Assembly: GCA_041685915.1 (NCBI GenBank)
Contig: JAWLEV010000003.1
Coordinates: 11,206 to 75,205 of the forward strand
Reading direction: 5' to 3'
Origin: Anaerolineae bacterium
GTDB lineage: Bacteria > Chloroflexota > Anaerolineae > UBA1429
DNA length: 64,000 bases
Shown: positions 29,882-64,000 of the stretch, piece after piece
Layout of the letters: each line of letters starts with the position of its first letter
Position numbering within the stretch: the first letter of the stretch is position 1
Notes under the pieces: model-generated
What the model saw: the letters and a program-made list of their open reading frames with translations, nothing else
The model's database searches: none
What the model was told of the DNA's origin: nothing
Position numbers and translations under genes: made by a program

Positions 29882-30276
29882 GTGGAGATGGCGGGAATCG
29901 AACCCGCGTCCAAAAAGTTCGGCCAGAGACATCTACAGGTTTAGTCGATCCACATCATCTCATAGATCCGTTTTTGCTCGACAAAACCCGTAATCTACCA
30001 GCCGACAGAGTCTTTGGTCAGCGATATCGGCGTCTCCCTGACCGCAGCCCGATTTAGCCGTCGCCCGTTACTTTCCTCTCAGGCTAAGGAAGAGTAAGGA
30101 CGTGACCGGCACTTCTTGGCCGATCAAGCTCGTATTTTAACTGGTGCTACGCAGCTAAAGCGAGCTCTGGAGTATAAGTGTCTTCGGCACTTAAAGTGTT
30201 GCCTCTGATTTACGAGGATGAGGCACCTCGACCTGCAGTCCCTAACCAGCCCTTTCTGTCGAATCCTGTCATCCCC
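29882..30276 (-). ncRNA. ssrA: tmRNA (transfer-messenger RNA)
   Basis: On the minus strand the 5' end is GGGGATGACAGGATTCGACAG and the 3' end is GGACGCGGGTTCGATTCCCGCCATCTCCA. The acceptor stem GGGGATG/CATCTCC carries the G3:U wobble alanine identity pair. The internal tag ORF reads GCC GAA GAC ACT TAT ACT CCA GAG CTC GCT TTA GCT GCG TAG, i.e. AEDTYTPELALAA followed by a stop. smpB lies 1.1 kb away. Confidence 0.85.
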
Positions 30277-46548: not shown

Positions 46549-46688
46549 GATTGACGAGGGAAAAGGGGGGATCTGATGCCACAAGTCGAGTCTTTGCCCC
46601 GCTTCAACCTCGATCTGTTAGACTCTCTTTACTCCGTCAACGCATTCTCCAATTGGCCCATTCAGTCATCTTATGCCAGGAGGTCCAG

Positions 46689-48605
46689 ATGAATAGCGCA
46701 AAGAGCACGCAGGAAGAGACGCGAATAAAGATCATCTACTGTGTCGAATGCAATTTAGAACCGGAGGCCAAACGTTTGGCGACGGCGATAAAGAACCGCT
46801 TCGGCCTCGAGGCAAAGCTGGAAGAAGGGCACGACGGCATCTTTGAGATAAGCATGGACGACCACGTCATATATAACAATCTGGCTCAGGGGGGACAATT
46901 ACCAACCGACAAAGAGATTCTTCAGAGGATTCAGCAACGCATGGAACCACCCTCCAGCATAAGAAGGGAAAAGCTGAAGGTCATGAACCCCATGGGTTAT
47001 CCCCCCGCGGTGACTCAGATCGAGATGGCGCCCCGGCTCGACACCCTGGAGGGCAAGACCGTGTATCTGGTCGATTGCCGCTTCGACGATGGCGATCTAC
47101 TCATGGCCCAGATGCAAGCCTGGTTTAAGGAATATATGCCCTCTGTGAAAACGGTGCTGCGCAGCAAATCCGGTATCTATACCGAGGATGATCCCGAACT
47201 CTTTGAGGAGATCGGCGAGAAAGGTGATGCCTTGGTTTTGGGAGTGGGCCATTGAAGCACCTGTGCTCCGGCGGTCGCCGAGCATTGCATCAATATTGAA
47301 GACGAATATGGTGTACCGACAGTGTCGGTACACACAGACGCCTTTGAGCAAGCAGTCAAGGCTGTGGCCCGTACACACGGTATGCCCCAACAGCGTCTCG
47401 CCTTTGTTCCCATGCCCGTGATGGGCAAGTCACCGACAGAGTTAAGGGAGTACATCGAGGGAAACGATCCCGTCACAGGTCAGCCCGTCATGCACGAGAT
47501 CGTCGATGCCCTCACACACCCTCTGAGCGAGGAGGAGAAAAAGGGCTTTCGCTTTGACCGCTCCACTCCCCGCTTTGTGGCACCCGACACTGAGGAGAAT
47601 CTGCGACGTCTGTTCGCCAAAAAGGGTCGGACGGACTATTTGCCCATCGTCCTCCCCACGGAGGAACGCGTCGACGCCATGCTGTCGGGCACAAGCCATG
47701 ATCCCCAGGAAATAGTGGGCCAGATGCGCCCCACCTCGACCCGTGAGGCGTGGGAGTACACCGTCGAAAAAGTAGCGGTGAACGCCGTGATGGCCGGAGC
47801 GAGACCAGAGTATCTCCCCGTCATATTGGCCTTGGCGGCCACCCAGATCTCAGCGCGCCCCAGCACCACAAGTTCAGCGGCCTGTATGGTGGTCGTGAAC
47901 GGGCCAATACGTCACGAGATCGACATGAATTGGGGCATCGGCGCCATGGGGCCCTACAATCACGCCAACGCCACCATAGGACGAGCCTACGGGTTGCTGT
48001 CGCAGAACCTGCAGGGCGGCTCGGAACCGGCCCTCACCTATCTGGGATCACAGGGTAACAACTATGCTTATAACAGCATCACCTTTGCAGAAAACGAGGA
48101 ACGTAGCCCCTGGACGCCCTTCCACGTCGAGCAAGGCTTCGAAGCGGAAGAAAGTGCGGTCAGCGTCTTCGGTGGCGTGCGCTCCACGGCCTACAATCTG
48201 GGCGTGCGGGAGAAACACTGGCGAGAGCACGTGCGCAACATGCTGCGCGGTATGAACCCCTATCTACCGCCCACGTTCGTTTTGGACCCCATCACAGCAC
48301 GTCAGTTCGTCGATCGCGGCGCCTTTGACACCAAAGAGAAACTCATCCATTGGATTTATGACAATGCCAGGATGCCCGCGGGTGTCTACTGGGATCATCA
48401 ACTGATAGAAAATTACGTATATCCTCGCGCCCTGAACGGCGTGGAACCCTATGCTACCATGCTAGAAGCCGCCGATGATGAATTGATCTCCGTCTTTCCC
48501 AAGGACACGATCCACATCGTCGTTGTAGGCGGCGAAACCAACGGATATTGGCGCATCATGGGCTGCAATTACGCTGAAAGCATGTCCGTCGACGCGTGGA
48601 GATAG
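46689..48605 (+). CDS. Putative selenoprotein (~638 aa). Domain order: Rdx/SelW-like CxxC domain, then a selenoprotein-B (GrdB/PrdB-family)-like core with U-x-x-C, then a ~430-aa unknown C-terminal domain. The in-frame UGA (Sec) is at 47253-47255.
   Basis: ORFs 46551..47255 and 47322..48605 share one frame. The only stop between them is the UGA at 47253-47255, and the frame is open from that UGA to 48605. Neither GTG 47322 nor ATG 47382 has an RBS. Read-through gives EEIGEKGDALVLGVGH-U-STCAPAVAEHCINIEDEYGVPTVSV, which parallels the PrdB Sec region (EEGVDAVLLTAG-U-GTCHRSAVIVQRAIEEAGIPTIII, recalled from memory). The N-terminal IKIIYCVECNLEPEAKRLATAIKNRFGLEAKLEEGHDGIFEI matches the Rdx (SelW/SelT) fold. 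AGGAGG lies 5 nt before the ATG at 46689. Confidence 0.55.
47265..47283 (+). promoter_or_regulatory. bSECIS-like hairpin (GCUC-C-GGC [GGUC] GCC-GAGC), 10 nt 3' of the in-frame UGA
   Basis: Stem of 7 bp plus a 1-nt bulge, with apical loop GGUC. The loop G/U sit at +22/+23 from the U of UGA. This is comparable to the E. coli fdhF SECIS, where the essential loop G23/U24 sit about 20 nt after UGA. Confidence 0.5.
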
Positions 48606-48808
48606 GATCAAAAAGAGCGTGAACATCAGCCCCCGGGCTGGTCCAAAAGCAGCATAACCCTTGGGCTGAGAATGGGTTACAACTATTGTGAGAGGGCTCT
48701 TGACGCGCGTGATGGTCCAGCCTTCAAAGTATGACCATAGGCTCACACAGAGCAATGCCTTCTCAAAACACGCCGAGGCCAGTAACCTACAGTTAGAGAG
48801 GATAATTG

Positions 48809-50605
48809 ATGGGTAAGGAACCACACGTTTTCAAATTCCTGAGAGATAAGGTCATCATACACTCCAGGGGTAGAATGTGCGAGACCCCCGACGAACTTTT
48901 GACAAGCGCACCTTTTAAAAGATTCCTGAGAATCATCCTGCAGCGCCTGTCGAAAAGGAACTCGCGATTCATGGGAATATTTGGCCCCCAGACTGACGTC
49001 CCCCCGGAGATAGACGAGGAAAGCATCACGCTTTTGATCCAAACCTTTCAACATCTGGCCAAACTGGACCGAGCCGTGGTTCCCAATATCCTGCCCGATG
49101 CAAAAGTCTTTTTTAGAGATCCGGACCTGCTGAACGACTTTGTCGAGTATCTCTATAACGCCTGGCGAGACTATGACCGCTTTATCATCATTTCCGGCTT
49201 TCAGGGAGATCAGCTGGACGAAAGACCTTATAGAACGTTTAACGAAACTGTGGAACAACTTATGCATCTGGTGCGAGGGACGTATCGCGATGTCCAGGAA
49301 AATATCACCCGTCAACATCCCCAAGTCTATCGCCAGGCGCGAGCGGGCGCAGACATTGCCACCATCGTCTCCCGCCAGAGCACCCGCGCGACATCCTGGA
49401 TAGAAGGAATCCCCTATAGCAAGCTAGAGCAAATACCCATCGTTCGTCAAGTATTGCTATATCCTCCACTGGTGCTCGATCCACCGATGAACCGCCGCAC
49501 AGGCCGATTCCGACGCGTCGAGGAAAATCCTCTCCTGCTTGTCCATCCCACAAGTGACGAATGGATCTGCTATCCGGCCAAGGTGGGCAAGTTACTTGTC
49601 CTTGTCTATATCCACGAAAAGTTTCTCGAATTGGGACTTTCCCTATGCAACCTGTTCAAAGTCGCCAGCGACAAGGATCTGCAAAGCAAACCAGACGCCA
49701 TCTACATGTTCGGTGTGCCCGGCGATGTGCTGGATCGCTTTGGGTCCCTGCCCACAGTCTTCTATGACGATCCCGATAACGAGATACTGATAGCCGCCGT
49801 ACCTAACGCCGACCGCTTCGGCTACTTTGGCTATCTAAAAAAGATGATACTTACGCTGCACAATGTCAAGATGATGACGATGGACCGCTTACCGTTCCAT
49901 GGCGCGCTGGTCAAGATCAGATTGCATAGTCAGACGCACACCATCCTCCTCATCGGCGATAGTGGCGCCGGCAAGTCGGAAACGTTGGAGGCCTTCCGTG
50001 TGCTGAGCGAGAACGAACTCCAGGACATGATCATCATCGCCGACGATATGGGCGCCATCGATATAGCCGATGGCGATGTCCTGGGATACGGCACAGAGAT
50101 CGGCGCCTTCATCCGATTGGACGATCTGCAACCCGGCTATGAATTCGGTCAGATGGGACGCGCCATATTCATGAGCCCTTCTAGGACGAATGCCCGCCTG
50201 CTTTTGCCTGTGACAACCTATCCCGATGTCGTGCAGGGTAATAAAATCGATATGATCCTCTATGCTAATAACTACCAAGAGGTGGACGAGGATCATCCCA
50301 TCATCGAACGATTCAAAGATCCCAGAGAAGCCCTCGAGGTGTTCGAACAGGGCAAAGTGATGAGCAAGGGCACCACCACCTCAAAAGGCATTGTACACTC
50401 CTATTTTGCTAATATTTTCGGTCCCCCACAATACAGGGACCTACACGACCGGATCGCCCGTCGCTACTTTGACCATTTCTTCGCCCATAGGATATTCGTG
50501 GCACAGATCAGGACGCGCCTGGGAATTCCAGGCTGGGAAACCAAGGGACCAGAAGAGGCAGCAAGGGCCCTGATCAAGCTGATGATGACCGACTACCGCT
50601 CCTGA
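48809..50605 (+). CDS. HprK-like P-loop kinase-domain protein with a ~380-aa unknown N-terminal region
   Basis: The C-terminal region HGALVKIRLHSQTHTILLIGDSGAGKSETLEAFRVL...IIIADDMG matches the HPr kinase/phosphorylase C-domain Walker A motif (GDSGxGKSE) and downstream ADD. GAGAGGA RBS upstream. Confidence 0.55.
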   Translation: MGKEPHVFKFLRDKVIIHSRGRMCETPDELLTSAPFKRFLRIILQRLSKRNSRFMGIFGPQTDVPPEIDEESITLLIQTFQHLAKLDRAVVPNILPDAKVFFRDPDLLNDFVEYLYNAWRDYDRFIIISGFQGDQLDERPYRTFNETVEQLMHLVRGTYRDVQENITRQHPQVYRQARAGADIATIVSRQSTRATSWIEGIPYSKLEQIPIVRQVLLYPPLVLDPPMNRRTGRFRRVEENPLLLVHPTSDEWICYPAKVGKLLVLVYIHEKFLELGLSLCNLFKVASDKDLQSKPDAIYMFGVPGDVLDRFGSLPTVFYDDPDNEILIAAVPNADRFGYFGYLKKMILTLHNVKMMTMDRLPFHGALVKIRLHSQTHTILLIGDSGAGKSETLEAFRVLSENELQDMIIIADDMGAIDIADGDVLGYGTEIGAFIRLDDLQPGYEFGQMGRAIFMSPSRTNARLLLPVTTYPDVVQGNKIDMILYANNYQEVDEDHPIIERFKDPREALEVFEQGKVMSKGTTTSKGIVHSYFANIFGPPQYRDLHDRIARRYFDHFFAHRIFVAQIRTRLGIPGWETKGPEEAARALIKLMMTDYRS

Positions 50606-52006: not shown

Positions 52007-53014
52007 TTGACCCTCCCCTATCTCGATGATATAATCACCTTGTTACAGTTTATAACAAGTGAGCATATACAATTGAAAAACAAGATATATAGCCTGATAA
52101 AACTGACAATAAGCATAGGATTATTGCTTCTTCTCTTCACCCTATTCGATTTTCGTGAATCTTGGGAAGCCTTGCGGGGGATGGATTATCGCTATTTTGG
52201 ATTGGCCTTTCTTCTGTTCCAAAGTGGCCTGGTTATCCGATCTTTCCGCTGGCATTTCCTCCTTGACGCCGTTCAGGTGTCTGTCCCTATCCATCGTCTC
52301 CTATACCTCTATTATGTGGGAGAGTTCTTCAATACCTTTCTTCCATCGGGCCTCGGCGGGGATGCCGTCAAGATGTACGAACTCGCCCGCCACAGTCAAA
52401 AAAGATCTGAGGCTGTAGGTACCGTCTTTCTCGACCGTGTAGCCGGACTTGTCGTACTCTCGGCCATGGGCCTGGCAGTTTTACCGTTGGCCCCAAAATC
52501 TCTGCCCCAACAACAAATCGTCGTCTTGGGTCTTGCCTCGCTCATGGGGCTTGCTGGCCCGTGGCTCCTGCTCCAACGGCGTCTGGCCGAACGGATAATC
52601 GGAGTCATGCCAAATATCCTGCGTCACAAAGCGCAATCCCTGTACGATGCCGTGCATACCTCTGGCACCCACGCACTGTGGAAAGCGCTACTTGTCTCGA
52701 TTCCTTTCACCATAATACTTTTCGCCCTCAATTTTTCTCTCGCCCTGGGGCTGGGTATCGAGATTCCCTTTTTCTATTTCGTGATTTTTATGCCCCTCTT
52801 ATCCCTTACTTTACTCTTGCCCTCCGTCGGTGCCTTGGGAACAAGAGAGACGGCCTATGTATTGCTCTTTGGAAGTGCAGGGATCAGTGAGCCGATGGCC
52901 ATTGCCCTGTCTCTATCCCTGTACTTTATCACCGCCTGCAGCGGTATCATAGGAGCCTTGCTATATGCTCTCGATTCCATAGTTCGACTGAGATCGGAAA
53001 ACGAAACCACATAA
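52007..53014 (+). CDS. Flippase-like polytopic membrane protein (UPF0104 / LPG-synthase-TM-like). TTG start is uncertain.
   Basis: 6-8 predicted TM segments. FNTFLPSGLGGDAVKMYEL is characteristic of this family. It lies immediately upstream of the GT2 gene. Confidence 0.6.
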   Translation: MTLPYLDDIITLLQFITSEHIQLKNKIYSLIKLTISIGLLLLLFTLFDFRESWEALRGMDYRYFGLAFLLFQSGLVIRSFRWHFLLDAVQVSVPIHRLLYLYYVGEFFNTFLPSGLGGDAVKMYELARHSQKRSEAVGTVFLDRVAGLVVLSAMGLAVLPLAPKSLPQQQIVVLGLASLMGLAGPWLLLQRRLAERIIGVMPNILRHKAQSLYDAVHTSGTHALWKALLVSIPFTIILFALNFSLALGLGIEIPFFYFVIFMPLLSLTLLLPSVGALGTRETAYVLLFGSAGISEPMAIALSLSLYFITACSGIIGALLYALDSIVRLRSENETT

Positions 53015-53024
53015 GGAGACGGGA

Positions 53025-53996
53025 ATGGATCTATCCATCATAGTGCCCATATACAACGAAGAGGAGAATATCCCCCGTCTTTATGATGAGCTTACCGCCG
53101 TCCTGGATCCCCTCCAACGGGAATATGAGATCATCTGTGTGGATGACGGAAGCCAGGATCGTTCCTTTACCCTACTCAAGGAACTGGCCCAGAATGATTC
53201 CTGCGTCAAGGTCATTCGTTTTCGCAAGAACTTTGGACAATCGGCGGGGTTCAGTGCGGGATTCGACCATGCCAGGGGTGATATTGTGATCACCATCGAC
53301 GCTGATCTGCAAAACGACCCGTCCAGCATTCCCGATCTACTGGACAAGATGTCAGAGGGATATGATGTGGTCAGTGGCTGGCGGAAGGACAGGAAGGATG
53401 CTTTCCTCACTCGAAAACTTCCCTCCAGGATAGCCAACTGGTTAATCTCACGAACGACCGGCGTCGACGTGCACGATAGAGGATGCTCCCTGCGCGCACA
53501 CCGAAAAGAGATCGTCAAGGAGATCAACCTCTATGGCGAACTCCACCGTTTCATCCCCGATATGGCCGCCTGGATCGGCGCCTCCATGACCGAGATGCCG
53601 GTCGGTCATCGCCCCCGCATGTACGGTCAATCCAAGTACGGCATCGGCAGGACGTTCCGTGTGATCCTTGACCTGATCACGGTGCGCTTCCTGCAGGGCT
53701 ACTCCACACGACCCATCCACATCTTTGGCAAGTGGGGCTTGGGCTTTGGCCTGCTGGGCTTCCTCCTTGCTCTTTGGTTGAGTATCCAAAAACTCATTCT
53801 AGGGCAATCGATAGGGGATCGCCCCGCCCTCATCCTCTCCGTCCTCCTTATCCTTGTCGGCATACAACTGGTATCCATTGGCCTCCTGGGCGAGATGACC
53901 GTGCGCATTTACTATGAGGGCCAAAATATGCCCATCTACCGCGTGCGGGAGATCATAGGATATGCGGATGAAGGAAAAGAAGACACGCGGGATTAG
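53025..53996 (+). CDS. Polyprenyl-phosphate glycosyltransferase (GT2, DPM1/ArnC/GtrB-like) with two C-terminal TM helices
   Basis: LSIIVPIYNEEENI...EIICVDDGSQDRS...VITIDADLQNDP...VVSGWR. The C-terminal TM pair is typical of ArnC/GtrB. AAGGAGACGGG RBS upstream. Confidence 0.85.
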   Translation: MDLSIIVPIYNEEENIPRLYDELTAVLDPLQREYEIICVDDGSQDRSFTLLKELAQNDSCVKVIRFRKNFGQSAGFSAGFDHARGDIVITIDADLQNDPSSIPDLLDKMSEGYDVVSGWRKDRKDAFLTRKLPSRIANWLISRTTGVDVHDRGCSLRAHRKEIVKEINLYGELHRFIPDMAAWIGASMTEMPVGHRPRMYGQSKYGIGRTFRVILDLITVRFLQGYSTRPIHIFGKWGLGFGLLGFLLALWLSIQKLILGQSIGDRPALILSVLLILVGIQLVSIGLLGEMTVRIYYEGQNMPIYRVREIIGYADEGKEDTRD

Positions 53997-54001
53997 ATGA
54001 C

Positions 54002-56569
54002 ATGAGCCTTCAAGGCCCTAAGAGAGTAGCCCTCTCCCTTTGCGCTTTGGTACTCGCCAATCTGATCATCTTTTTCACCCAGATTACCGCGGTTCAGACG
54101 CTGGCCGCTTTCCTCCTGACCACTTTGCTGCCGGGATTCCTACTGTTATCTTTACTCCCCCTCCGACACAGCGGTCCCCACTATACCTTACAACATCTTG
54201 TCATCGGCCTCGGCTTGGGATACGCCATCGCCATCGCGGGAATCCTCTTCCTTCATTACCTCCCAGGTCCGATCACCAGAACGCGCGTCGCGTTCCTTTA
54301 TGACATGGCGATCATGAGCCTGTTAGCTGCACGATACCTGACCCATAGCCAAGAGCATACAGTTCTTATGGATATACCCCACCACAAAGCGCTCTTGGGC
54401 CTCGTGATCATCTTGGCCATAGCATTTTTCTTTCGCTTCTTCAGTCTGGAATACGCGGAATTTCAGGGAGACGAGGTGGCTGTCCTACACAAGGCGGCAG
54501 CCTGCATTCAGGGCCGCGAAGACACCCTCTTTCTGCATAAAAAGGGCCCCGCCGAGATACTTTTGCCCACCGGCTACTATGCCCTTGCCAGACGTACAAA
54601 TGAATGGGCTGCGCGCTTTCCTTTCTCCCTCGCTAATCTCATCGGCGTCCTGACATTGTATGCCCTGGGCCAAGCGGTCTTATCCCGGAAAGGAGCATGG
54701 TGGGCGGCCCTGCTCGTGGCCTTGAACGGTTTTTTCGTCGCCTTTGGGCGCATCGTGCAGTATCAGAGCCTCGTCTTTCTTTTCAGTACCCTGGGCATCC
54801 TCGCAGCCCTCGGCTTCGCACGAGGGGGAGAATCACAAAGCGACTCTGGGACTCGCCCCAAGGAGCATACTGAACACGTCTTACATAGCAGACGCGTCAA
54901 CCTTTACCTCACCGCCGTATTCCTGGCCATGGGTCTCCTGGCCCATACCGACGCCGTCTTTGCCGTGATTACATCGGCGTTTATCATACTGAAAGCCGCA
55001 TATCAGCGTCACCACGAACGCGTAACGCTCCCAACGCTGACGGCCCTTCTGGGACCGATCTTGCTCGCTGGCGCCCTGCTCGCCTCTTTCTATGTTCCCT
55101 TTGCCCTACATCCCCAGTTCGATACCACCCAGGGCTATCTCAAGCAGCGTATGGGCGTCCGTCCCCCTTACAATAATCTCAATGTTCTGCTGAATCTCGG
55201 CTCCGTCTATAACGCCATCTACTATCTCGTATTTCTCGCCCTCGTCCTCGCCTGGGCCCTGATCAGACACATAACACGGAGAAAAGCAACTGGATGGGCG
55301 ATTCTCGTTTCATGGGGCGCCCTGTCGGCCACGCGCCTCCTGTTTCCTAGCATATGGTGCATGGGAGAGCGGGACCTGACCGGCCTTCTCTTTATCCTCC
55401 CTATCATATTCTCATTCGTGACCGCCAGGGAGGATCTGGGATGGCAATTGGCATTGGTATGGTTCGGCGTCCCTTTTTTGATCTACATGTTTGGCTTCCG
55501 CGAACCACGGACGCACATCTACACCTTTTTCCCGGGGGCTGCTCTCCTCGCCGCCGGGGAACTGGACAGGCCCTACAAATCTCCCTGGAAGACGTGGCTT
55601 GTCTGCGGAGGAAGCGGCATCATCCTGCTCCTCTCCGCTGCTTATCTCCATATCACTTTTATCAGTCATACGCCCGAATACAAGCGCACCTATCCAGAGC
55701 ATCGCATCCCCTTCTTTTGGACGCCGTATGGAGAGGAGATGCCTGAACACGGCCTCTTTGGTTTCCCTTATCGCGCAGGATGGAAAGCAGTCGGCCAACT
55801 CTATGCCTCCGGTGCACTGGAAGGGGACTATGGCACCAACGAAGAAACCCACATCACCAGATGGTACACGCGAGGCGAGTACGCCTGCCAGGTCCAACCC
55901 CACTACTACTTTGTGGCTGAAAATGTACAGGATGAACAGGCCGTACCCATGTACGATATCCAGTCTGACTACACCCATTTTGGCACGGTCTGGGTGGGCG
56001 ATACACGCAAAATGCGTTTGTACGAAAAGGGGGAAGCCCGTTTGCCCTATCGAGATTATCAGGCCGCAGAAGCGGAAACGTACTTTGACCGGGAACTGAC
56101 AGATCCCCATTATCCCACGGGCCTTCCTCCCCAGGACCCCACATCCCACATCCAGCAACCCATGGATCGCAAACTGGGCCAGAACGTCGAGTTCTTGGGT
56201 TACGATATAAAAAAAACGCGCATCTGTCCGGGGGATACCATCGTCCTGACGCTCTACTGGCGCGCACTTGGCAAGATGACCGAATCATATACAGTATTCA
56301 CACACGTCGCAGATTCGGGAGGCATATGGGCCCAAAAGGATCATCCACCGTCTTGTGGAAACAATCCCACAGACGAATGGGAACCCGGACACGTATACGT
56401 GGACCCCTATGTCATCGTGACCGATTCGGACATGCCGTCGGGCACGTATCCCCTTCTCGCCGGCATGTACCGCTTCGACACCGGAGAGCGGCTTCCCGTA
56501 TCGGATGCAGAGGGCACGCAACTGGGACATGCGATGGAACTGGGAACCATCACGGTACTGGATAGATGA
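54002..56569 (+). CDS. GT-C fold membrane glycosyltransferase (PMT/ArnT-like, GT39/83-type) with a soluble middle domain and one copy of the ~130-aa C-terminal repeat domain
   Basis: About 12 TM helices in the N-terminal ~480 aa, with the family-typical periplasmic-loop motif (EYAEFQGDEVAVLHKAAA...LFLHKKGPAE). It is paralogous to the next gene (LLPGFLL...FRFxxLxYAEFQGDE...). The C-terminal domain is listed below. Confidence 0.75.
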   Translation: MSLQGPKRVALSLCALVLANLIIFFTQITAVQTLAAFLLTTLLPGFLLLSLLPLRHSGPHYTLQHLVIGLGLGYAIAIAGILFLHYLPGPITRTRVAFLYDMAIMSLLAARYLTHSQEHTVLMDIPHHKALLGLVIILAIAFFFRFFSLEYAEFQGDEVAVLHKAAACIQGREDTLFLHKKGPAEILLPTGYYALARRTNEWAARFPFSLANLIGVLTLYALGQAVLSRKGAWWAALLVALNGFFVAFGRIVQYQSLVFLFSTLGILAALGFARGGESQSDSGTRPKEHTEHVLHSRRVNLYLTAVFLAMGLLAHTDAVFAVITSAFIILKAAYQRHHERVTLPTLTALLGPILLAGALLASFYVPFALHPQFDTTQGYLKQRMGVRPPYNNLNVLLNLGSVYNAIYYLVFLALVLAWALIRHITRRKATGWAILVSWGALSATRLLFPSIWCMGERDLTGLLFILPIIFSFVTAREDLGWQLALVWFGVPFLIYMFGFREPRTHIYTFFPGAALLAAGELDRPYKSPWKTWLVCGGSGIILLLSAAYLHITFISHTPEYKRTYPEHRIPFFWTPYGEEMPEHGLFGFPYRAGWKAVGQLYASGALEGDYGTNEETHITRWYTRGEYACQVQPHYYFVAENVQDEQAVPMYDIQSDYTHFGTVWVGDTRKMRLYEKGEARLPYRDYQAAEAETYFDRELTDPHYPTGLPPQDPTSHIQQPMDRKLGQNVEFLGYDIKKTRICPGDTIVLTLYWRALGKMTESYTVFTHVADSGGIWAQKDHPPSCGNNPTDEWEPGHVYVDPYVIVTDSDMPSGTYPLLAGMYRFDTGERLPVSDAEGTQLGHAMELGTITVLDR
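56174..56566 (+). repeat. C-terminal ~130-aa domain of unknown function, copy 1 (protein-level repeat)
   Basis: VEFLGYDIKKTRICPGDTIVLTLYWRALGKMTESYTVFTHVADSGG...PTDEWEPGHVYVDPYVIVTDSDMPSGTYPLLAGMYRFDTGERLP. Confidence 0.6.
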
Positions 56570-56615
56570 ACACGATAACCTGGGAACACGCCAAGAGGAA
56601 AGAGAAATAGGCACC

Positions 56616-59570
56616 GTGTGTCTGCAACCTGATGATTGGGGCAAAGTGGGAAAGCCCTTCCTCATACTATGCATCGCCTTTTTGCTCATTCTGATCCCCA
56701 CCAATCTTTGGCTGCGGACAGCGGGAGCGTTTGTCCTGACCTGTCTTCTCCCCGGATTCCTCCTTGGAGAGATCCTCTTTGGAGATGACGTGGCATTGGA
56801 CGTAGTAGAGAGACTGGGGATCTATATGGGACAGGGATATGTCGCCATGGTACTTGGTACGCTCCTCCTTCACTATATTCCGGGCTCCCTTCCCCCCAAA
56901 TCTATTCTGGGATTTTATGGCCTTCTGACCGTCGTACTTTTACTCTTCAGAACTGGCCAGGAACCTGGTGCCCCATGGCACCTCTCCCTCTCAAGCAAAG
57001 CCACGATCTGCTTGGTGATTCTTCTGTTGCTGGCCGGCTTTTTCCGTTTCACCCACTTGGGCTATTCGGAATTTCAGGGCGATGAGGGAAGAGCCCTTCT
57101 CAGAGCCGCAGAGATCCTGCAGGGAAACGACGAGGTCCTTTTCCTACACAAAAAGGGGCCCGTGGAAATCCTCGTACCCGCCGCCCTCTATGCCTCCCTA
57201 AGGCGCATTACCGAGGCCGCAGCCCGCTTCCCTTTCACTATGGCCAATCTCGCTGGCGTTGTCGCCCTTTTTGCACTGGGGCGAAGGCTGTTCAATGTAC
57301 ACGTTGGCCTGCTGGCCATGGCCCTCGTGACCATCGATGGCTTTTGTATCGGCTTCTCCCGCATCGTGCAGTATCAGAGCATCGTGCTCCTCATGACCCT
57401 CCTGACCCTGTTTTGTACCTATAGATGGTACCAGACAGAGGGGCAGCGGTCATCCTACCTGCTGGCTGCAGCAGCCTTCGCCGGCATCGCCCTGCTCGCC
57501 CATTATGAAGGCTTTTTCATCCTGCCCGGCGCCTTTTACATAGTCTGGTACGTGGCTAAAAGGAGGGGCTGGCCCCTCGATCAAGTTGCACGACGCGTCG
57601 GCCTCCCCATCCTGGTCGGCTGCAGTATCGTGGGCATCTTTTATATTCCCTTTACTTTACATCCCAACTTCTCGGAAACCCTGGAGTATCTGACCGACAG
57701 GCGAGTGGGAGTGAGCGACGGGCTGCCCTATAATAACATCACCGATTTCTTCTGGCGGACAAGTTACTACAACGCCTCCTATTATCCCCTGTTGATGGGG
57801 GCACTCCTCCTCACCACCATACAGTCCCTCCTGTTGCGAACACATAAAAAGCGTCTCATACGCATAGGTATATGCATCTTGAGCCTCGGCGCCTGGTTGC
57901 TGATCACCCTTTTCCCTTCCTGGTGGCAATTTGGCTCCGTCAATCTGTCAGTCATCGTTTTTCTCATCACCGGCATCCTGCTCCTCCGCGCTCCCTTATC
58001 TATAGAAGAGCGTACCCTTCTCATATGGTTCGGCAGCGCCGCCCTGCTCTACTTCTTTCTCATGGTCAAAGTTCACACCCATTATTATGTCGCTCTAATT
58101 CCCTGGATACTGCTCGTTGCCGGTAGTCTTTCGAAAGGATGGCGTTGGATAGGCCGCCGATGGAAGTCCATAATCTGGGTAACTGCTCTCTTGGGCATAG
58201 GATTCTGGATTCTATGCGGCTACTATGTGTACATCGTCTTTGTGCGTCATTCTGTGGAATACCACCAGAACTATCCTGCGGCGAAACCGGCCATCTACTG
58301 GACGCCCTTCGATGAGCGTCCCCAGGGAGGCTACTTTGGCTTCCCCTACCGCACGGCCTGGAAGGCCGTTGGTGGCATGTACGACGCGGGGATACTACAG
58401 GGAACGTATGACAGCAATCAGAAGGAACGGATCACCAACTGGTACACCCGTGGCGCCATGCGCTGCCCACAGGGCGACTACTTCATTATAGCACGTGACG
58501 TGGAGGACCCCCACGAGATAATCCCTGGCGTGATCACCGGTGAGTATATGCCCGCCATGGAGGTCCTGTGCGAGGGCGAACCGGAACTTTGGATCTTTGA
58601 ACGTGGCTACGACGGCCCTCTACAAAGTTACGACTATGCGACATATGCTGCCGATTTCGATCAACGCCTCTCGGCCCCCGTCTTTCGCGTGGGCGCTCCC
58701 CTGGATGAGGTTTTCGAGCCCCCCCATCACATGGATGCCAGTTTCGGCGGACATTTCCAACTCGCGGGATGGGACCTGAATCCCACCATCGTCGCCAGAG
58801 ACGACAGGACAATTCTGAGCCTCTATTGGCGAACTCTGAAACCAACCTCGGCCAACTACCACGTTTTTGTACATGTAGGCGGGAGAGACACCGTGGCCCA
58901 GGAGGATAGCGTGCCACGGTGCGGTCAACACCCTACGTATCGCTGGAAACAGGGAGAGGAGGTTGTGGACCACTATCTTCTCGAAATTCCTCCAGAAACC
59001 CCTTTGGGCGTGTACCCCATCCGTGTGGGCATGTACGATTTTATGAGCAAGGATCGTCTCACCATCAAGGACGCGGAAGGACGCGAGACGGATAGCTTGC
59101 GCCTCGCCCATATGCGCATCGGCGAGCCCCAGACAGAGAGACCTGACGTCACAGATGAATACACGGCGAAGCTGGGAGAAAAGATCCGCCTCCTAGGATA
59201 CGATCTCCCCGATACCCAACTACAGCCCGGCCAAGATGTATCCTTGACACTATATTGGGAGTGTCTGGACAGCATGGAAACGGACTATACAGTTTTTGTG
59301 CACCTTCTGGGACCCGACGGGGAGATATATGGCCAGAGGGACACCTTCCCCTTGAACGGTCGCTTACCCACCACATTCTGGGTCCCTCAAGAGACCCTGT
59401 CCGATCCCTACAACATCGATGTGACCAAAGACGCACCGTCGGGAACCTACTCCCTTGCCATCGGAATGTACGACTTGCATAGTGGCGACCGGCTCCCGGC
59501 GACGAGCGTCGACGGCACTTCTCTGCCCAACGATCAGATTACGCTGCCTACCACACTTTCTCATGACTGA
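56616..59570 (+). CDS. GT-C fold membrane glycosyltransferase paralog with two tandem copies of the C-terminal repeat domain. Start uncertain (ORF opens at 56505; GTG 56616 precedes the first TM helix).
   Basis: Same architecture as 54002..56569 (HLGYSEFQGDEGRALLRAAEILQGNDEVLFLHKKGPVE). The ORF overlaps the upstream gene's last 65 nt. Confidence 0.7.
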   Translation: MCLQPDDWGKVGKPFLILCIAFLLILIPTNLWLRTAGAFVLTCLLPGFLLGEILFGDDVALDVVERLGIYMGQGYVAMVLGTLLLHYIPGSLPPKSILGFYGLLTVVLLLFRTGQEPGAPWHLSLSSKATICLVILLLLAGFFRFTHLGYSEFQGDEGRALLRAAEILQGNDEVLFLHKKGPVEILVPAALYASLRRITEAAARFPFTMANLAGVVALFALGRRLFNVHVGLLAMALVTIDGFCIGFSRIVQYQSIVLLMTLLTLFCTYRWYQTEGQRSSYLLAAAAFAGIALLAHYEGFFILPGAFYIVWYVAKRRGWPLDQVARRVGLPILVGCSIVGIFYIPFTLHPNFSETLEYLTDRRVGVSDGLPYNNITDFFWRTSYYNASYYPLLMGALLLTTIQSLLLRTHKKRLIRIGICILSLGAWLLITLFPSWWQFGSVNLSVIVFLITGILLLRAPLSIEERTLLIWFGSAALLYFFLMVKVHTHYYVALIPWILLVAGSLSKGWRWIGRRWKSIIWVTALLGIGFWILCGYYVYIVFVRHSVEYHQNYPAAKPAIYWTPFDERPQGGYFGFPYRTAWKAVGGMYDAGILQGTYDSNQKERITNWYTRGAMRCPQGDYFIIARDVEDPHEIIPGVITGEYMPAMEVLCEGEPELWIFERGYDGPLQSYDYATYAADFDQRLSAPVFRVGAPLDEVFEPPHHMDASFGGHFQLAGWDLNPTIVARDDRTILSLYWRTLKPTSANYHVFVHVGGRDTVAQEDSVPRCGQHPTYRWKQGEEVVDHYLLEIPPETPLGVYPIRVGMYDFMSKDRLTIKDAEGRETDSLRLAHMRIGEPQTERPDVTDEYTAKLGEKIRLLGYDLPDTQLQPGQDVSLTLYWECLDSMETDYTVFVHLLGPDGEIYGQRDTFPLNGRLPTTFWVPQETLSDPYNIDVTKDAPSGTYSLAIGMYDLHSGDRLPATSVDGTSLPNDQITLPTTLSHD
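58743..59130 (+). repeat. C-terminal repeat domain, copy 2
   Basis: FQLAGWDLNPTIVARDDRTILSLYWRTLKPTSANYHVFVHVGGRD...PTYRWKQGEEVVDHYLLEIPPETPLGVYPIRVGMYDFMSKDRL. Confidence 0.6.
59171..59567 (+). repeat. C-terminal repeat domain, copy 3
   Basis: IRLLGYDLPDTQLQPGQDVSLTLYWECLDSMETDYTVFVHLLGPDGEIYGQRDTFPLNGRLPTTFWVPQETLSDPYNIDVTKDAPSGTYSLAIGMYDLHSGDRLP. Confidence 0.6.
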
Positions 59571-60588
59571 AACATCACCCAAAAACGCGAACAATCTGAA
59601 AAAAGCCCTGTTCGGACTGCCCCATATCATCACATGGATCCTTATATTAGCCACCGTGGCCGCCTTTGGCCTGTGGGGCTTTTCACACCTCGATGGCTTC
59701 TCCTGGAGCTGGGACGAAAGCCTGCTCATTGCTACCGCACGGGCGGTGAATGCAGGGAACGCCCTCTATGAGGAGATTTGGTACGATTATCCTCCCCTAT
59801 TCCCTTTACTCCTGCAACCAGCATTCCGACTCGGCTCCGAACCCATACAGGCTGCTCGAGGCCTCATCGTCGTATGTAGCCTCGTAACCCTGATAAGCGC
59901 GGGCTGGATTACTCATCAGGTAAGCCATAGCGATCTGGCCTCTATAACAGCAGTTCTCCTGCTCCTGTTGGCACCCCCTTTTGTGGCCAACTCACGAGCC
60001 GCCCTGGCAGATCTCCCCGCCCTCACACTGGCTGCACTGGCACTGGCGACCACCTTGCACGGCAAAAAGTCAGAGGCCCGGCCATGGTTCGCTGTGGCCG
60101 GATTTCTCTACAGCGCAAGCCTGGCCATCAAACCAACCTCCTACTTTGTCATCTTGCCCATGATCGTCCTGTTGTGGACCGGAGATGGCGACACCGCTTT
60201 TCCTTTACAGGACTTGACGGCACTGGTTGAGCGGCTCCTCTTTGTCGCCGGAGGTTGCACTATCGGGCTCATTCTCTTTTTCGCCTGGGTGCCCATGAGG
60301 GCCTTTCTCCAACAACTGCTCCAAACCTATTGGGGTGCTCAACAACACCACGGTTTCGAGTTTGTGGAGAACTTGAGGCACGTATGGCTCTACTTTGTTG
60401 GAGACGAGTATGGCGGCTCACAATGCGGACTCTTTTCCCTGAGCGCTTTTGGATGTCTGGCCATGTTGATGCTTCTCGCCGACGGAGTCCTGACAATGCC
60501 GTCAGATTGGAGAGCAGGCCATACCCGTAACTGCAGGCAGCCACCTCCCTCCAAGGATATCTTTATCCAAATTGCTGTTAGTAGATAG
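59563..60588 (+). CDS. Short (341 aa) GT-C-like polytopic membrane protein without the C-terminal soluble domains
   Basis: Start ATG overlaps the upstream stop (ATGACTGA). The first loop FSWSWDESLLIATARAVNAGNALYEEIWYDYPPLF matches the loop of the partial gene at 63073 (FAWKYDEGINVSKAQLLLDRHHLYEDIWSDQPPLF). Confidence 0.6.
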   Translation: MTETSPKNANNLKKALFGLPHIITWILILATVAAFGLWGFSHLDGFSWSWDESLLIATARAVNAGNALYEEIWYDYPPLFPLLLQPAFRLGSEPIQAARGLIVVCSLVTLISAGWITHQVSHSDLASITAVLLLLLAPPFVANSRAALADLPALTLAALALATTLHGKKSEARPWFAVAGFLYSASLAIKPTSYFVILPMIVLLWTGDGDTAFPLQDLTALVERLLFVAGGCTIGLILFFAWVPMRAFLQQLLQTYWGAQQHHGFEFVENLRHVWLYFVGDEYGGSQCGLFSLSAFGCLAMLMLLADGVLTMPSDWRAGHTRNCRQPPPSKDIFIQIAVSR

Positions 60589-60676
60589 AGATGATATCAT
60601 AATTGCTCAGTAAAGAGCGAGCACATATACCTTCAGTTGAAAGAAGGGCTGATCGACTAGTGTTGACTATGCACCG

Positions 60677-63076
60677 ATGAACCTGAAAGAATACATAGCA
60701 GGTAAATGGGGGAAGGCGGGGATCATCATCCTGGTCATCGTCCTGGCCCTATCCCTGTTCCTCCGTCTCTATGCCATAGACGTCTTCCTCGCCGGCGACG
60801 AGACAAAGTGGATCTGCCGTAGCATCAATTTCCACAACGCCCTTGTAAACGGGGATTGGCCCTCCACTTATCAGTCGGAACACCCCGGTGTGATCACCAT
60901 GTTGACCGGAACCTTGGCCGTCCCCTTGAACAAGGCCGGGGAATGGATTGGTTTATGTCAGGAAATGGGTGGCAGCAAACTTACCCGCGTGGACGACAGG
61001 GCGACATTGCTATGTTTGCCATCGCTGATCTTTCAGGCCAGACGCGCCCTCGCTGTCATCACCTGGGGTGGCATCGTCGTCCTCTCTCTTCTTCTACAAA
61101 AACTGTTTGAAAAAAGCGTAGCCTTGCTCGCCACGACCCTGGTCGCCCTCGACCCCTTCCATCTGGCCCTGTCCCGCGTCCTTCATCTGGACGCCCTCCT
61201 TACCACCTTTATGACCCTCTCGATGATCAGTCTGTTGATATACGAACTGCGAGATCGACGTCGAGGATATCTTTACCTTTCGGGTATCATGTGTGGACTG
61301 GCCATAGCCAACAAGTCACCCGCCCTCTTTCTTCTCCCCTTCACGGCCATGATCCTTGCCCTCAAAGCGCTCCGTGGAAAAAGGGAGAACCGCCCCATGC
61401 GTCTCAAAGAGGCACTGCACACCATGATTATATGGAGCGGTATCGCCGGAGCCGTCGTGCTTTTATTATGGCCCTCCCTGTGGGCGAACCCCGTGGGAAC
61501 CTTGAAGAATGTGCTGGGGGCGGCCGTAGAGTACGCCGAAGAACCCCACGGCAACTCGAATTTTTTCTGGTTTGCCATACGGCCCGACCCGGGCCCGGCC
61601 TTTTATCCCGTTGCCTGGCTGTTCCGCACTACGCCGTGGGTTATCGTGGGTTTGATACTCTTGATAGTGAAGATGATCCGCCAGAAGGACCACAACCAGA
61701 GCGTCACCTCTATGCTCCTCTTTGTCCTCCTGTACACCCTCTTTATGACCACGGGGGCAAAAAAGTTTGACAGATACCTGCTCCCCGTCATCCCTACCCT
61801 GAATATCCTCTCCGCCCTGGGATGGATGTGGGGGCTGCGACGGATGACTGGGAAGCGCTTGCGCAATCGGCACACATGCGCTCCCCTTTTGCTTTGCGGA
61901 TTCTTGGCCATCACACAATTGGCGTTGATCTGGCCCACACAGCCCTACTATTTTTCCTATTACAATCCCCTCCTTGGAGGTGCACGGACGGCCACCAGGA
62001 TCCTCCTCGTTGGCTGGGGGGAGGGAATGGAAAAGGCCGCCGCTTACCTCAACGATAAGCCAGGGGCCGAGGAATTCCACGTCAATACCGCACACATCTC
62101 CCAGTTGGCCCCCTTTTTCAAAGGCCATACGAGCAGCGCCTCGGAACTCGATCTCGCCGAATCGGACTACTATGTCTTCTACTGGAATACCATCCAGCGT
62201 CGGCGCGAGCCAGAGGTTCTGAACCGCTTCTATAGTGTCGAGGAACCGGAGCACGTTGTACGCGTGAATGGCATCGACTACGTTTGGATCTATCCCAACA
62301 CCCTCTACCGCCCTGTGATTGACTACCTTGAGGAAAGGGCTGACCGTAAGCAAGACATCGTGCTCGTCGACGTGAATACGGCCCTCATGCGCCAATACGA
62401 GGGCCCCCTTGATCTGGTCGCCGTCGATGGCGCCCAGACAGAAGATGACATCGTACAGGAACTCTCCCAGGTTACAGCGGGGCGGCAAAGGGTATGGTTC
62501 CTGACCTTTCCAGAAACACCCGGAGATCCCCGTCAACTCGTTCGCCATCACCTGGAAAAGCAAGCACAAGGCGTGCAGAAAATAACCTTTGAGGGTATGG
62601 TTTTGGAGTGCTTCGAACTCGATGACGAGGCACACTTCACCCTCCCCACGCCCACAGTGCCACGAAAAGTCCGCCTTGGAAAAAAGATCCACCTGATCGG
62701 CTATGACCTGCCCCAGAGAACGATCACAGACGAGAAACCTCTGACGGTCCGCCTCTATTGGCGTACAGAGGCCCTCCTGGACACCAATTATACCGTCTTT
62801 GTCCACCTGCTGGGGCCAGATGGCGCCAGGTACGGCCAGAAGGACAGTACCCCACAGAACGGTGCGCGTCCAACGGACATCTGGCTCACGGATGAGATCA
62901 TCGCCGACGAGTACAGGATCGATGTGGCGGAGGATGCCCCCCCAGGAGCCTATGCGCTGGCTGTGGGAATGTACAATTGGGAGACGGGTGAACGCCTTCC
63001 CGCCCGGGAAGGACAGGAACACCTGGATGAGAACCGCATCCTCATTGAGGGCTTATACAAGGAAGAGACCCCATGA
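60677..63076 (+). CDS. GT-C fold membrane glycosyltransferase (PMT/ArnT-like) with one C-terminal repeat-domain copy
   Basis: Polytopic N-terminal domain (LRLYAIDVFLAGDETKW...) plus a C-terminal domain about 50% identical to the second domain copy of the 56616..59570 protein. Confidence 0.75.
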   Translation: MNLKEYIAGKWGKAGIIILVIVLALSLFLRLYAIDVFLAGDETKWICRSINFHNALVNGDWPSTYQSEHPGVITMLTGTLAVPLNKAGEWIGLCQEMGGSKLTRVDDRATLLCLPSLIFQARRALAVITWGGIVVLSLLLQKLFEKSVALLATTLVALDPFHLALSRVLHLDALLTTFMTLSMISLLIYELRDRRRGYLYLSGIMCGLAIANKSPALFLLPFTAMILALKALRGKRENRPMRLKEALHTMIIWSGIAGAVVLLLWPSLWANPVGTLKNVLGAAVEYAEEPHGNSNFFWFAIRPDPGPAFYPVAWLFRTTPWVIVGLILLIVKMIRQKDHNQSVTSMLLFVLLYTLFMTTGAKKFDRYLLPVIPTLNILSALGWMWGLRRMTGKRLRNRHTCAPLLLCGFLAITQLALIWPTQPYYFSYYNPLLGGARTATRILLVGWGEGMEKAAAYLNDKPGAEEFHVNTAHISQLAPFFKGHTSSASELDLAESDYYVFYWNTIQRRREPEVLNRFYSVEEPEHVVRVNGIDYVWIYPNTLYRPVIDYLEERADRKQDIVLVDVNTALMRQYEGPLDLVAVDGAQTEDDIVQELSQVTAGRQRVWFLTFPETPGDPRQLVRHHLEKQAQGVQKITFEGMVLECFELDDEAHFTLPTPTVPRKVRLGKKIHLIGYDLPQRTITDEKPLTVRLYWRTEALLDTNYTVFVHLLGPDGARYGQKDSTPQNGARPTDIWLTDEIIADEYRIDVAEDAPPGAYALAVGMYNWETGERLPAREGQEHLDENRILIEGLYKEETP
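62676..63073 (+). repeat. C-terminal repeat domain, copy 4
   Basis: IHLIGYDLPQRTITDEKPLTVRLYWRTEALLDTNYTVFVHLLGPDGARYGQKDSTPQNGARPTDIWLTDEIIADEYRIDVAEDAPPGAYALAVGMYNWETGERLP. Confidence 0.6.
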
Positions 63077-64000
63077 GCAAAGCGATGCGATCCCAAATCC
63101 TTTTCTGGACGCTGTTGATACTCCTCGTCGTGCTATTCATCCTTTGGCAATGGGGGCCCGTCCACAGCTTTGCCTGGAAATACGACGAGGGGATAAATGT
63201 ATCAAAAGCACAGTTGTTGTTGGATCGTCACCACCTCTATGAGGACATTTGGTCCGATCAGCCACCACTGTTCACCTTCATGCTCGCGACAACCTTTCTC
63301 CTGTTCGGTGAGAGCGTTGCCGTCGGACGCCTCATGGTACTTGCCCTGGCCGGATTGGCCTTGCTGTCGCTGGCCTGGATCGCGGAACAGGTGGCGGGCA
63401 AGGTGGCAGCGCTCCTGGCTGCCGTGGCTCTAGCATTGTTTCCCCACTTTCAGGAACTGTCCCAGTTGATCATGATCGGACTGCCAGCCATCAGCCTTGG
63501 GCTACTCGCCCTCGCCTTTGGATTTCGATATCGGGCAAAAGGTCGAATGCGCTGGCTGCTATTTGCAGGGCTTTCATTTGGTCTCAGTCTACTCGTCAAG
63601 CCCATCACAGCGCCCATGTTTCTGCCCCTCAGCATGCTATCCTTCGGAATATGGGAGGAAAGACTCCCTCTCCATAAGCGCATTCCGCCATGGACTTTCT
63701 TTGCCGCGGCGACCCTACTTCCCGTTATGGTCGCCCTTATATGTTGTAGCCCCCGTGCCTTTGTCCAGCAAGTAGCGGGTACGCTGTTCGGCGCACGGAG
63801 AGCACATAACCTTTCCCTGATCGAGAATGTCCGCCAAATTGGCATCTACCTTTCCCGTGATAAATGGGAACTGTCGCATGCCGGCCTTTCTATCCTGGCG
63901 CTCCTGGGCATGACCTCCCTGGTCCTGCATCGCCGCTGGCACCCACTCGCCATCCTCGGAACGTGGCTCGGCGGCGTATTAGGGGCCCTCGTCCTTCACA
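63073..64000 (+). CDS. GT-C-like membrane glycosyltransferase paralog, partial (continues beyond the window end)
   Basis: ATG overlaps the upstream stop (ATGA). I translated it manually to the window end with no stop. It is absent from the ORF track because it has no in-window stop. Confidence 0.6.
   Translation, partial: MSKAMRSQILFWTLLILLVVLFILWQWGPVHSFAWKYDEGINVSKAQLLLDRHHLYEDIWSDQPPLFTFMLATTFLLFGESVAVGRLMVLALAGLALLSLAWIAEQVAGKVAALLAAVALALFPHFQELSQLIMIGLPAISLGLLALAFGFRYRAKGRMRWLLFAGLSFGLSLLVKPITAPMFLPLSMLSFGIWEERLPLHKRIPPWTFFAAATLLPVMVALICCSPRAFVQQVAGTLFGARRAHNLSLIENVRQIGIYLSRDKWELSHAGLSILALLGMTSLVLHRRWHPLAILGTWLGGVLGALVLH

Follow-up and report, generated by a model that had tools for sequence, protein, structure and literature searches.

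The window analyzed here, 64,000 nucleotides of a contig from an Anaerolineae bacterium (phylum Chloroflexota; GenBank assembly GCA_041685915.1, contig JAWLEV010000003.1), encodes several large membrane glycosyltransferases of the GT-C superfamily that end in the same domain of about 130 amino acids (aa), and the locus raises the question of what this domain is and why different enzymes carry it. We found that it belongs to a very large sequence family and that, in Chloroflexota, GT-C enzymes of many kinds carry it as an accessory module at the C terminus, in one to four tandem copies. We infer that it may act outside the cytoplasm as a targeting module, similar to a carbohydrate-binding module (CBM), for an envelope polymer that these enzymes share.

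A six-frame translation of the whole window was scanned with a hidden Markov model (HMM) for copies of the domain, and exactly four were found, with no others. Numbered in order along the forward strand, copy 1 (positions 56174 to 56566; independent E value [i-E], 5e-45) is the sole copy of GT-C protein A and forms its extreme C terminus (aa 725 to 855); it retains the conserved H/Q/D/P/G/P/T/W/D/Y/R positions. GT-C protein B has a tandem pair, made up of copy 2 (58743 to 59129; aa 710 to 838; i-E, 2e-39) and the terminal copy 3 (59169 to 59567; aa 852 to 984; i-E, 1.5e-50), and copy 4 (62675 to 63073; aa 667 to 799; i-E, 8e-47) is the sole, C-terminal copy of GT-C protein C. By pairwise BLASTP, copies 3 and 4 are 51.8% identical over 110 aa (E value, 5e-43), in agreement with the roughly 50% estimated beforehand, and the remaining five pairs are 33 to 44% identical (E values, 1e-22 to 2e-33). 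Copy 2 is the most divergent of the four, with 33 to 37% identity to the others. An alignment of all four has 27 invariant columns and a mean column identity of 57%. The similarity between the copies is far above chance. Translation, alignment, and the HMM scan thus bear out the original prediction, which had been made from the sequence alone and had placed four copies sharing one pattern at these sites; only the starts of copies 3 and 4 had been set out of frame, at 59171 and 62676. At the DNA level, identity between the copies is low (68% over 199 nucleotides for the best pair), and we therefore regard them as old duplications. A recent DNA repeat or an assembly artifact is ruled out by the same low identity.

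None of the four copies matched a Pfam-A family at an E value of 10 or below. Whole host proteins matched Pfam only through PMT_2 and PMT in their membrane parts, and NCBIfam matches at an E value of 1 or below likewise fell in the membrane parts, with none in the C-terminal region. A search of the sequences in the PDB with the domain profile gave 0 matches at an E value of 10 or below; full-length proteins A and B also had no match there, and full-length protein C had only a marginal PMT match (E value, 0.07). The precomputed Pfam annotation of 120 homologs of protein C consists of PF02366, PF13231, and one PF11028, all of them membrane-module families, and has no entry for the C-terminal domain. 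Fragments of up to 250 aa that contain only the domain carry no Pfam annotation, and nearly all are named "hypothetical protein." When 73 diverse instances were scanned singly against Pfam, nothing scored above threshold; the subthreshold matches were to Wzt_C (7 of 73; best E value, 0.0085) and ML (7), followed by DUF4832, NPCBM_assoc, and MG2. Two full-length homologs reached 19 to 20 bits against Wzt_C (PF14524), below its gathering threshold of 30.4, and the domain is not assigned to that family. We searched the literature for an account of the domain and found none. We concluded that the domain is, as first supposed, not a recognized named family: profile searches of Pfam and NCBIfam did not assign the repeat to any described family, and no Pfam-A or NCBIfam model covers the C-terminal 130 aa.

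An AlphaFold2 model of copy 3, built from a 37-sequence alignment, had a predicted local distance difference test (pLDDT) score of 97.5 and a predicted template modeling (pTM) score of 0.89. It consists of a seven-strand β-sandwich with two short helical turns in the loop at residues 60 to 72. Foldseek returned only generic immunoglobulin (Ig)-like/E-set matches (NPC2, RhoGDI, ASF1, CARDB, the carbohydrate-binding domain of Wzt, and RbmA), with E values of about 1e-4 and template modeling scores of at most 0.62. In the model, the fold is clearly an Ig-like/E-set β-sandwich; it has no close solved relative, and its nearest structural neighbors include carbohydrate-binding domains.

In the model of full-length protein C (pLDDT, 90.3; pTM, 0.82), a membrane module extends to about aa 425 and is followed by an α/β region at about aa 445 to 650 and by the β-sandwich at aa 661 to 795. 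The domain had been described as always lying C-terminal to the membrane GT-C module. That order holds, but the domain does not follow the module directly, since a confidently modeled α/β region of about 200 to 230 aa (window positions 62009 to 62626) intervenes in protein C. This region had no Pfam or NCBIfam match. Equivalent α/β regions are also present in proteins A and B. Topology was judged by crude hydropathy, which did not resolve all membrane helices and left only the last cytoplasmic loop informative; in protein C this loop, the last before the final membrane segment, has 9 lysine or arginine residues versus 1 aspartate or glutamate. In solved GT-C enzymes, the C-terminal domains face outward (PMC11127046). 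The loop charge and these structures together support the earlier presumption of a periplasmic location, and the domain is probably extracytoplasmic.

An exhaustive HMM search over 1.84 billion cluster representatives (50% identity) gave 31,607 representatives with the domain at an E value of 1e-3 or below, 23,431 at 1e-10 or below, and 9,762 at 1e-30 or below. The top 150 matches all have two to four tandem copies that end 0 to 32 aa from the C terminus; these proteins are about 1,000 aa long, with about 450 to 750 residues ahead of the first copy in the full-length ones. Genome loci were searched with the pattern [DSN]YTVFVH[LVI]x[DGN], a narrow pattern that is biased toward close Chloroflexota relatives and sets no outer taxonomic limit, and at least 589 matches were confirmed. 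The best 80 of these were all in metagenome-assembled genomes (MAGs) of Chloroflexota (Anaerolineae, Caldilineae, Thermoflexia, Ardenticatenia, and Chloroflexia). Names from outside this phylum appeared among the homologs only singly, from MAGs of Thermoplasmata and Fimbriimonadaceae.

We examined 79 Chloroflexota loci from this search, which contain 185 domain-bearing open reading frames (ORFs), 142 of them complete. Five or more hydrophobic segments of membrane type precede the first copy in 132 of the 142 complete carriers, and the tail past the last copy is 10 aa or shorter in 126. One, two, and three copies are present in 43, 59, and 40 of these proteins, respectively, and 2 to 7 domain-bearing genes lie side by side in 49 of the 79 loci. 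In a Pfam census limited to one complete carrier per locus (54 proteins), we recorded PMT_2 in 42, PMT in 16, PTPS_related and DUF2142 in 4 each, DUF2079, TMEM260-like, YfhO, and STT3 in 3 each, and Glyco_transf_22, DUF6077, and CotH in 1 each. The hosts therefore span at least nine predicted GT-C-type Pfam families, plus one CotH protein. A module specific to one GT-C family, as had been proposed, is ruled out by this census. In the overwhelming majority of carriers, but not in all, the domain is appended to the C terminus of a membrane enzyme of GT-C type, the CotH carrier being one exception. This rare carrier (L061:37-3111) resembles CotH kinases, has one membrane segment, and ends in a single copy. 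Another (L007:6432-11468) is a membrane protein of 1,679 aa in which ten membrane segments and two copies precede a rhamnosidase-like six-hairpin extension. On an 807-kb contig (L001:4295-6750), a gene for a 569-aa PMT_2 protein is followed, with a 4-nucleotide overlap, by a 249-aa ORF with two copies; this pair represents either a GT-C enzyme and its domain that are naturally split or a frameshift.

The copies within a protein are not equally constrained. In multicopy proteins, terminal copies are on average 46% identical to each other and first copies 34%. Ten positions (H, Q, D, P, T, W, E, D, Y, and R, corresponding to H45, Q56, D58, P61, T68, W71, E75, D79, Y101, and R108 of copy 3) are 94 to 100% conserved in terminal copies, and the polar members of this set drop to 35 to 87% in first and middle copies. 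Of 98 pairs formed by paralogs of a single locus, 94 can be aligned in their last copies (median identity, 41%), and only 15 give an alignment of at least 250 aa in their membrane modules. The window itself fits this pattern: the last copy of protein B and the copy in protein C are 49 to 52% identical, and the membrane modules of the two proteins are 27% identical over 182 aa. A domain that is better conserved than the catalytic parts, and that is attached to different catalytic families, most simply recognizes something common to these enzymes. Among paralogs with mostly unalignable catalytic modules, the last copy retains about 40% identity, which argues against enzyme-specific substrate choice and for a shared target.

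The genes for the host proteins lie in one operon, in the order flippase-like gene, ArnC/GtrB-like glycosyltransferase family 2 (GT2) gene, and then five GT-C genes, all on the forward strand. Three of the GT-C proteins carry the domain, as originally predicted, but the array has five genes, not three; in array order we call them A, B, D, C, and E. Proteins A to E qualify as members of the GT-C superfamily, for which we required a multispan membrane module with this fold and, in its first outward loop, an acidic motif. Protein A (54002 to 56569; 855 aa) has PMT_2 and PMT matches above the cutoffs and is 34.5% identical to protein B over 851 aa, the two being paralogs across their whole length. 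The ORF of B (56505 to 59570) opens with an ATG at 56505 and encodes 984 aa from an ATG at 56616; it matches PMT_2 (E value, 8e-12) and has a 72.6% identical ortholog in the syntenic locus L002 (L002:309-3476), the alignment with which begins at window position 56535. Gene D (59563 to 60588; about 341 aa from an ATG at 59563; PMT_2 E value, 3e-08) lacks the domain. Proteins more distantly related to it in other loci (E values, 1e-22 to 1e-29) have about 800 aa and two copies. In L002, nothing lies between the orthologs of B and C, so that D has no counterpart there; D is probably the truncated remnant of a paralog. Protein C (60677 to 63076; 799 aa) is identical to an NCBI entry named [quoted passage not shown] and 74.3% identical to its ortholog in L002. 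Gene E (63073 to 64000), whose ATG overlaps the stop codon of C, is incomplete because the window ends within it; its ortholog, L002:6216-8612 (66.6% identity), encodes 799 aa with two copies of the domain. Because E runs off the end and its ortholog has two copies, the GT-C array and the domain count continue past the window.

The GT2 enzyme (53025 to 53996; Glycos_transf_2 E value, 4e-37) is a polyprenyl-phosphate glycosyltransferase by homology. It matches ArnC (E value, 7e-63) and GtrB sll0501 (E value, 2e-54) in the PDB over its full length, and it matches the NCBIfam models of ArnC and PgfS with scores under their cutoffs. It is presumed to make the lipid-linked sugar donor. The flippase-like membrane protein (52007 to 53014) belongs to the LPG_synthase_TM/TIGR00374 family (E value, 4e-43; 66.2 bits for TIGR00374, against a cutoff of 43.2). 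In flanks of only 6 kb, strong homologs of the GT2 enzyme adjoin GT-C arrays in 12 other loci, and flippase-like homologs lie beside arrays in 6. Judged by its gene content, the operon is laid out like the three-component systems of extracytoplasmic glycosylation (PMC11127046), with the GT-C component multiplied. It resembles the GtrA/GtrB/Gtr* systems in having a full-length GtrB/ArnC homolog encoded alongside GT-C enzymes and a flippase-like membrane protein. It differs from them in that the flippase candidate is of the LPG_synthase_TM/TIGR00374 family rather than of the GtrA, SMR, or MATE type, and in its number of GT-C genes, five against the single one of the classical systems.

The GT-C enzymes EmbC, AftD, and ORF12, the last a GT136 enzyme of Citrobacter youngae, have been described as carrying extracytoplasmic CBMs with affinity for the acceptor polymer (PMC3044687; PMC11127046), and the CBM of ORF12 binds the unmodified polymer backbone (PMC11127046). 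The domain studied here is like the CBMs of EmbC/EmbA/EmbB, AftD, and ORF12 in position and in the role proposed for it, as a β-rich, probably extracytoplasmic C-terminal module that would hold the polymeric acceptor for a GT-C enzyme dependent on a polyprenyl-phosphate sugar. ORF12 comes from a system made up of a donor synthase, a flippase, and a GT-C enzyme, which the window operon, with its candidate flippase, resembles. We found no sequence or fold homology to the C-terminal CBMs of EmbC, AftD, or GT136 and no sequence link to the Emb/AftD modules. In contrast to these precedents, the domain forms tandem arrays of one to four copies, is spread over at least nine predicted GT-C-type families, and occurs in operons with multiple paralogs. 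The O-antigen-binding C-terminal domain of Wzt (PF14524; PDB 6o14, 2r5o, 5hno, and 7k2t) is, unlike it, cytoplasmic and fused to the nucleotide-binding domain of an ABC transporter; identity to that domain is about 8 to 12%, and no Pfam match rises above about 20 bits, well short of the gathering threshold (30.4 bits). Other Ig-like/E-set domains (the GH2 β-sandwich, macroglobulin MG2, CARDB, NPCBM_assoc, and ML/NPC2) have no significant sequence match to it and have unrelated or purely structural roles. We concluded that an accessory β-sandwich on a GT-C enzyme is already known in kind and that the sequence family is a separate one, not covered by Pfam or NCBIfam.

Since the domain is common to differing GT-C enzymes and CBMs on such enzymes have been published, we favor the reading that it works outside the cytoplasm, in the manner of a CBM, to target these enzymes to an envelope polymer that they share, a proposal to which we give roughly even chances. 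In such a pathway, the ArnC/GtrB-like GT2 enzyme would load a sugar onto polyprenyl phosphate, and the flippase-like protein, if its predicted activity is correct, would move the loaded donor across the membrane to its outer face. The coencoded GT-C paralogs, with their differing catalytic modules, would then each transfer that sugar onto a polymeric acceptor of the envelope. The β-sandwich, above all the terminal copy, would bind a feature common to the polymer and so retain the enzyme on its substrate, as the CBMs of EmbC, AftD, and ORF12 do, and the internal, more diverged copies may add avidity or reach. Several points weigh against this reading. In the study of ORF12, catalysis is reported not to have required the CBM under the assay conditions used (PMC11127046). 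Structural neighbors of the domain are only about 5 to 19% identical to it and also include nonlectins (arrestins, ASF1, NPC2, RhoGDI, and macroglobulin MG domains), so that sugar binding does not follow from the fold by itself. The polar and aromatic residues that are conserved could be a structural minicore under the loop at residues 58 to 72 rather than a binding site. Finally, the GT2 enzyme also resembles PgfS, which belongs to a streptococcal pathway of protein O-glycosylation (PMC12041528), and the acceptor could thus be a protein.

This last point leads to an alternative that we consider unlikely but still the most credible of those weighed here, in which the domain is a protein-protein interaction module that either recognizes a protein acceptor (an S-layer or other envelope protein) for O-glycosylation or docks the GT-C paralogs to each other or to a common partner. 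The hosts do match families of protein O-mannosyltransferases (PMT, PMT_2, and TMEM260-like) and STT3, Ig-like folds often mediate protein contacts, and a conserved domain shared by several paralogs of one operon would fit a common docking partner. A passive role is also unlikely, to a very similar degree. The Ig-like domains would bind nothing specific and would project the enzyme into the multilayered envelope that is documented for Chloroflexota (PMC7332563), with copy number setting the reach. Copy number does vary from one to four, and close relatives of protein C already differ in it (one copy in about 800 aa versus three in about 1,080 aa), conservation of the internal copies is relaxed, and the generic Ig-like/E-set fold is also seen in nonbinding roles. 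However, a spacer would not be expected to hold ten polar and aromatic positions at 94 to 100% in the terminal copy across very different hosts, or to exceed the catalytic modules in conservation, and the domains lie at the free C-terminal end rather than between the membrane and a distal functional domain. More doubtful still is an intramolecular cap or regulator, in which the terminal copy would pack on the periplasmic face of its own enzyme and shape or gate the active site. The terminal copy is the most constrained one, and the pTM score of the full-length model of protein C suggests a defined arrangement of domains. Such an interface should covary with the catalytic module, yet a domain that is about 40 to 50% identical is found on modules that can no longer be aligned with one another, and the domain occurs with at least nine Pfam families; in addition, an α/β domain of about 230 aa, and often one to three further copies, lie between the terminal copy and the membrane module.

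Returning to the CBM-like reading, we tentatively extend it, with clearly less assurance than we have in the reading itself, to the proposal that the domain founds a new and very large CBM family. The terminal copy would read a backbone feature of an uncharacterized envelope polymer of monoderm Chloroflexota and would serve as a common address tag for arrays of catalytically different GT-C enzymes that decorate one polymer from one pool of lipid-linked donors.

Three other features of the window were noted. Directly upstream of the glycosylation operon, a 599-aa ORF (48806 to 50605, forward strand) has a P-loop-like GDSGAGKSE motif; it had no Pfam or NCBIfam match. At 46551 to 48605 (forward strand), two listed ORFs form one frame that is broken by a single TGA at 47253 to 47255. 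The first matches Rdx and the N-terminal part of UGSC and the second the C-terminal part of UGSC, and the sequence around the TGA (GVGH-TGA-STCAP) gives a U-x-x-C redox motif. This frame probably encodes a selenocysteine-containing protein of the UGSC family, of about 640 aa. A hairpin about 10 nucleotides past the TGA has a predicted energy of −18 kcal/mol and is unexceptional in comparison with shuffled sequences (z score, −1.16), and no gene for selenocysteine tRNA (tRNA-Sec) was found in the 64-kb window. A transfer-messenger RNA (tmRNA) gene lies on the reverse strand at 29882 to 30276; its tag peptide is AEDTYTPELALAA.

The picture of how GT-C enzymes work is unchanged by these findings, because accessory CBMs on such enzymes were already known. 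At least 31,607 cluster representatives have the domain without a Pfam or NCBIfam model for it, and their carriers are labeled only "GT39" or "ArnT family," with fragments labeled "hypothetical protein"; with the domain defined, environmental bacteria of a dominant group would be better annotated, and a new CBM family could be added. The cell envelope of Chloroflexota is still poorly understood, and a soluble, expressible domain of this kind would be a handle for finding the envelope polymer that the multigene GT-C arrays build or decorate.

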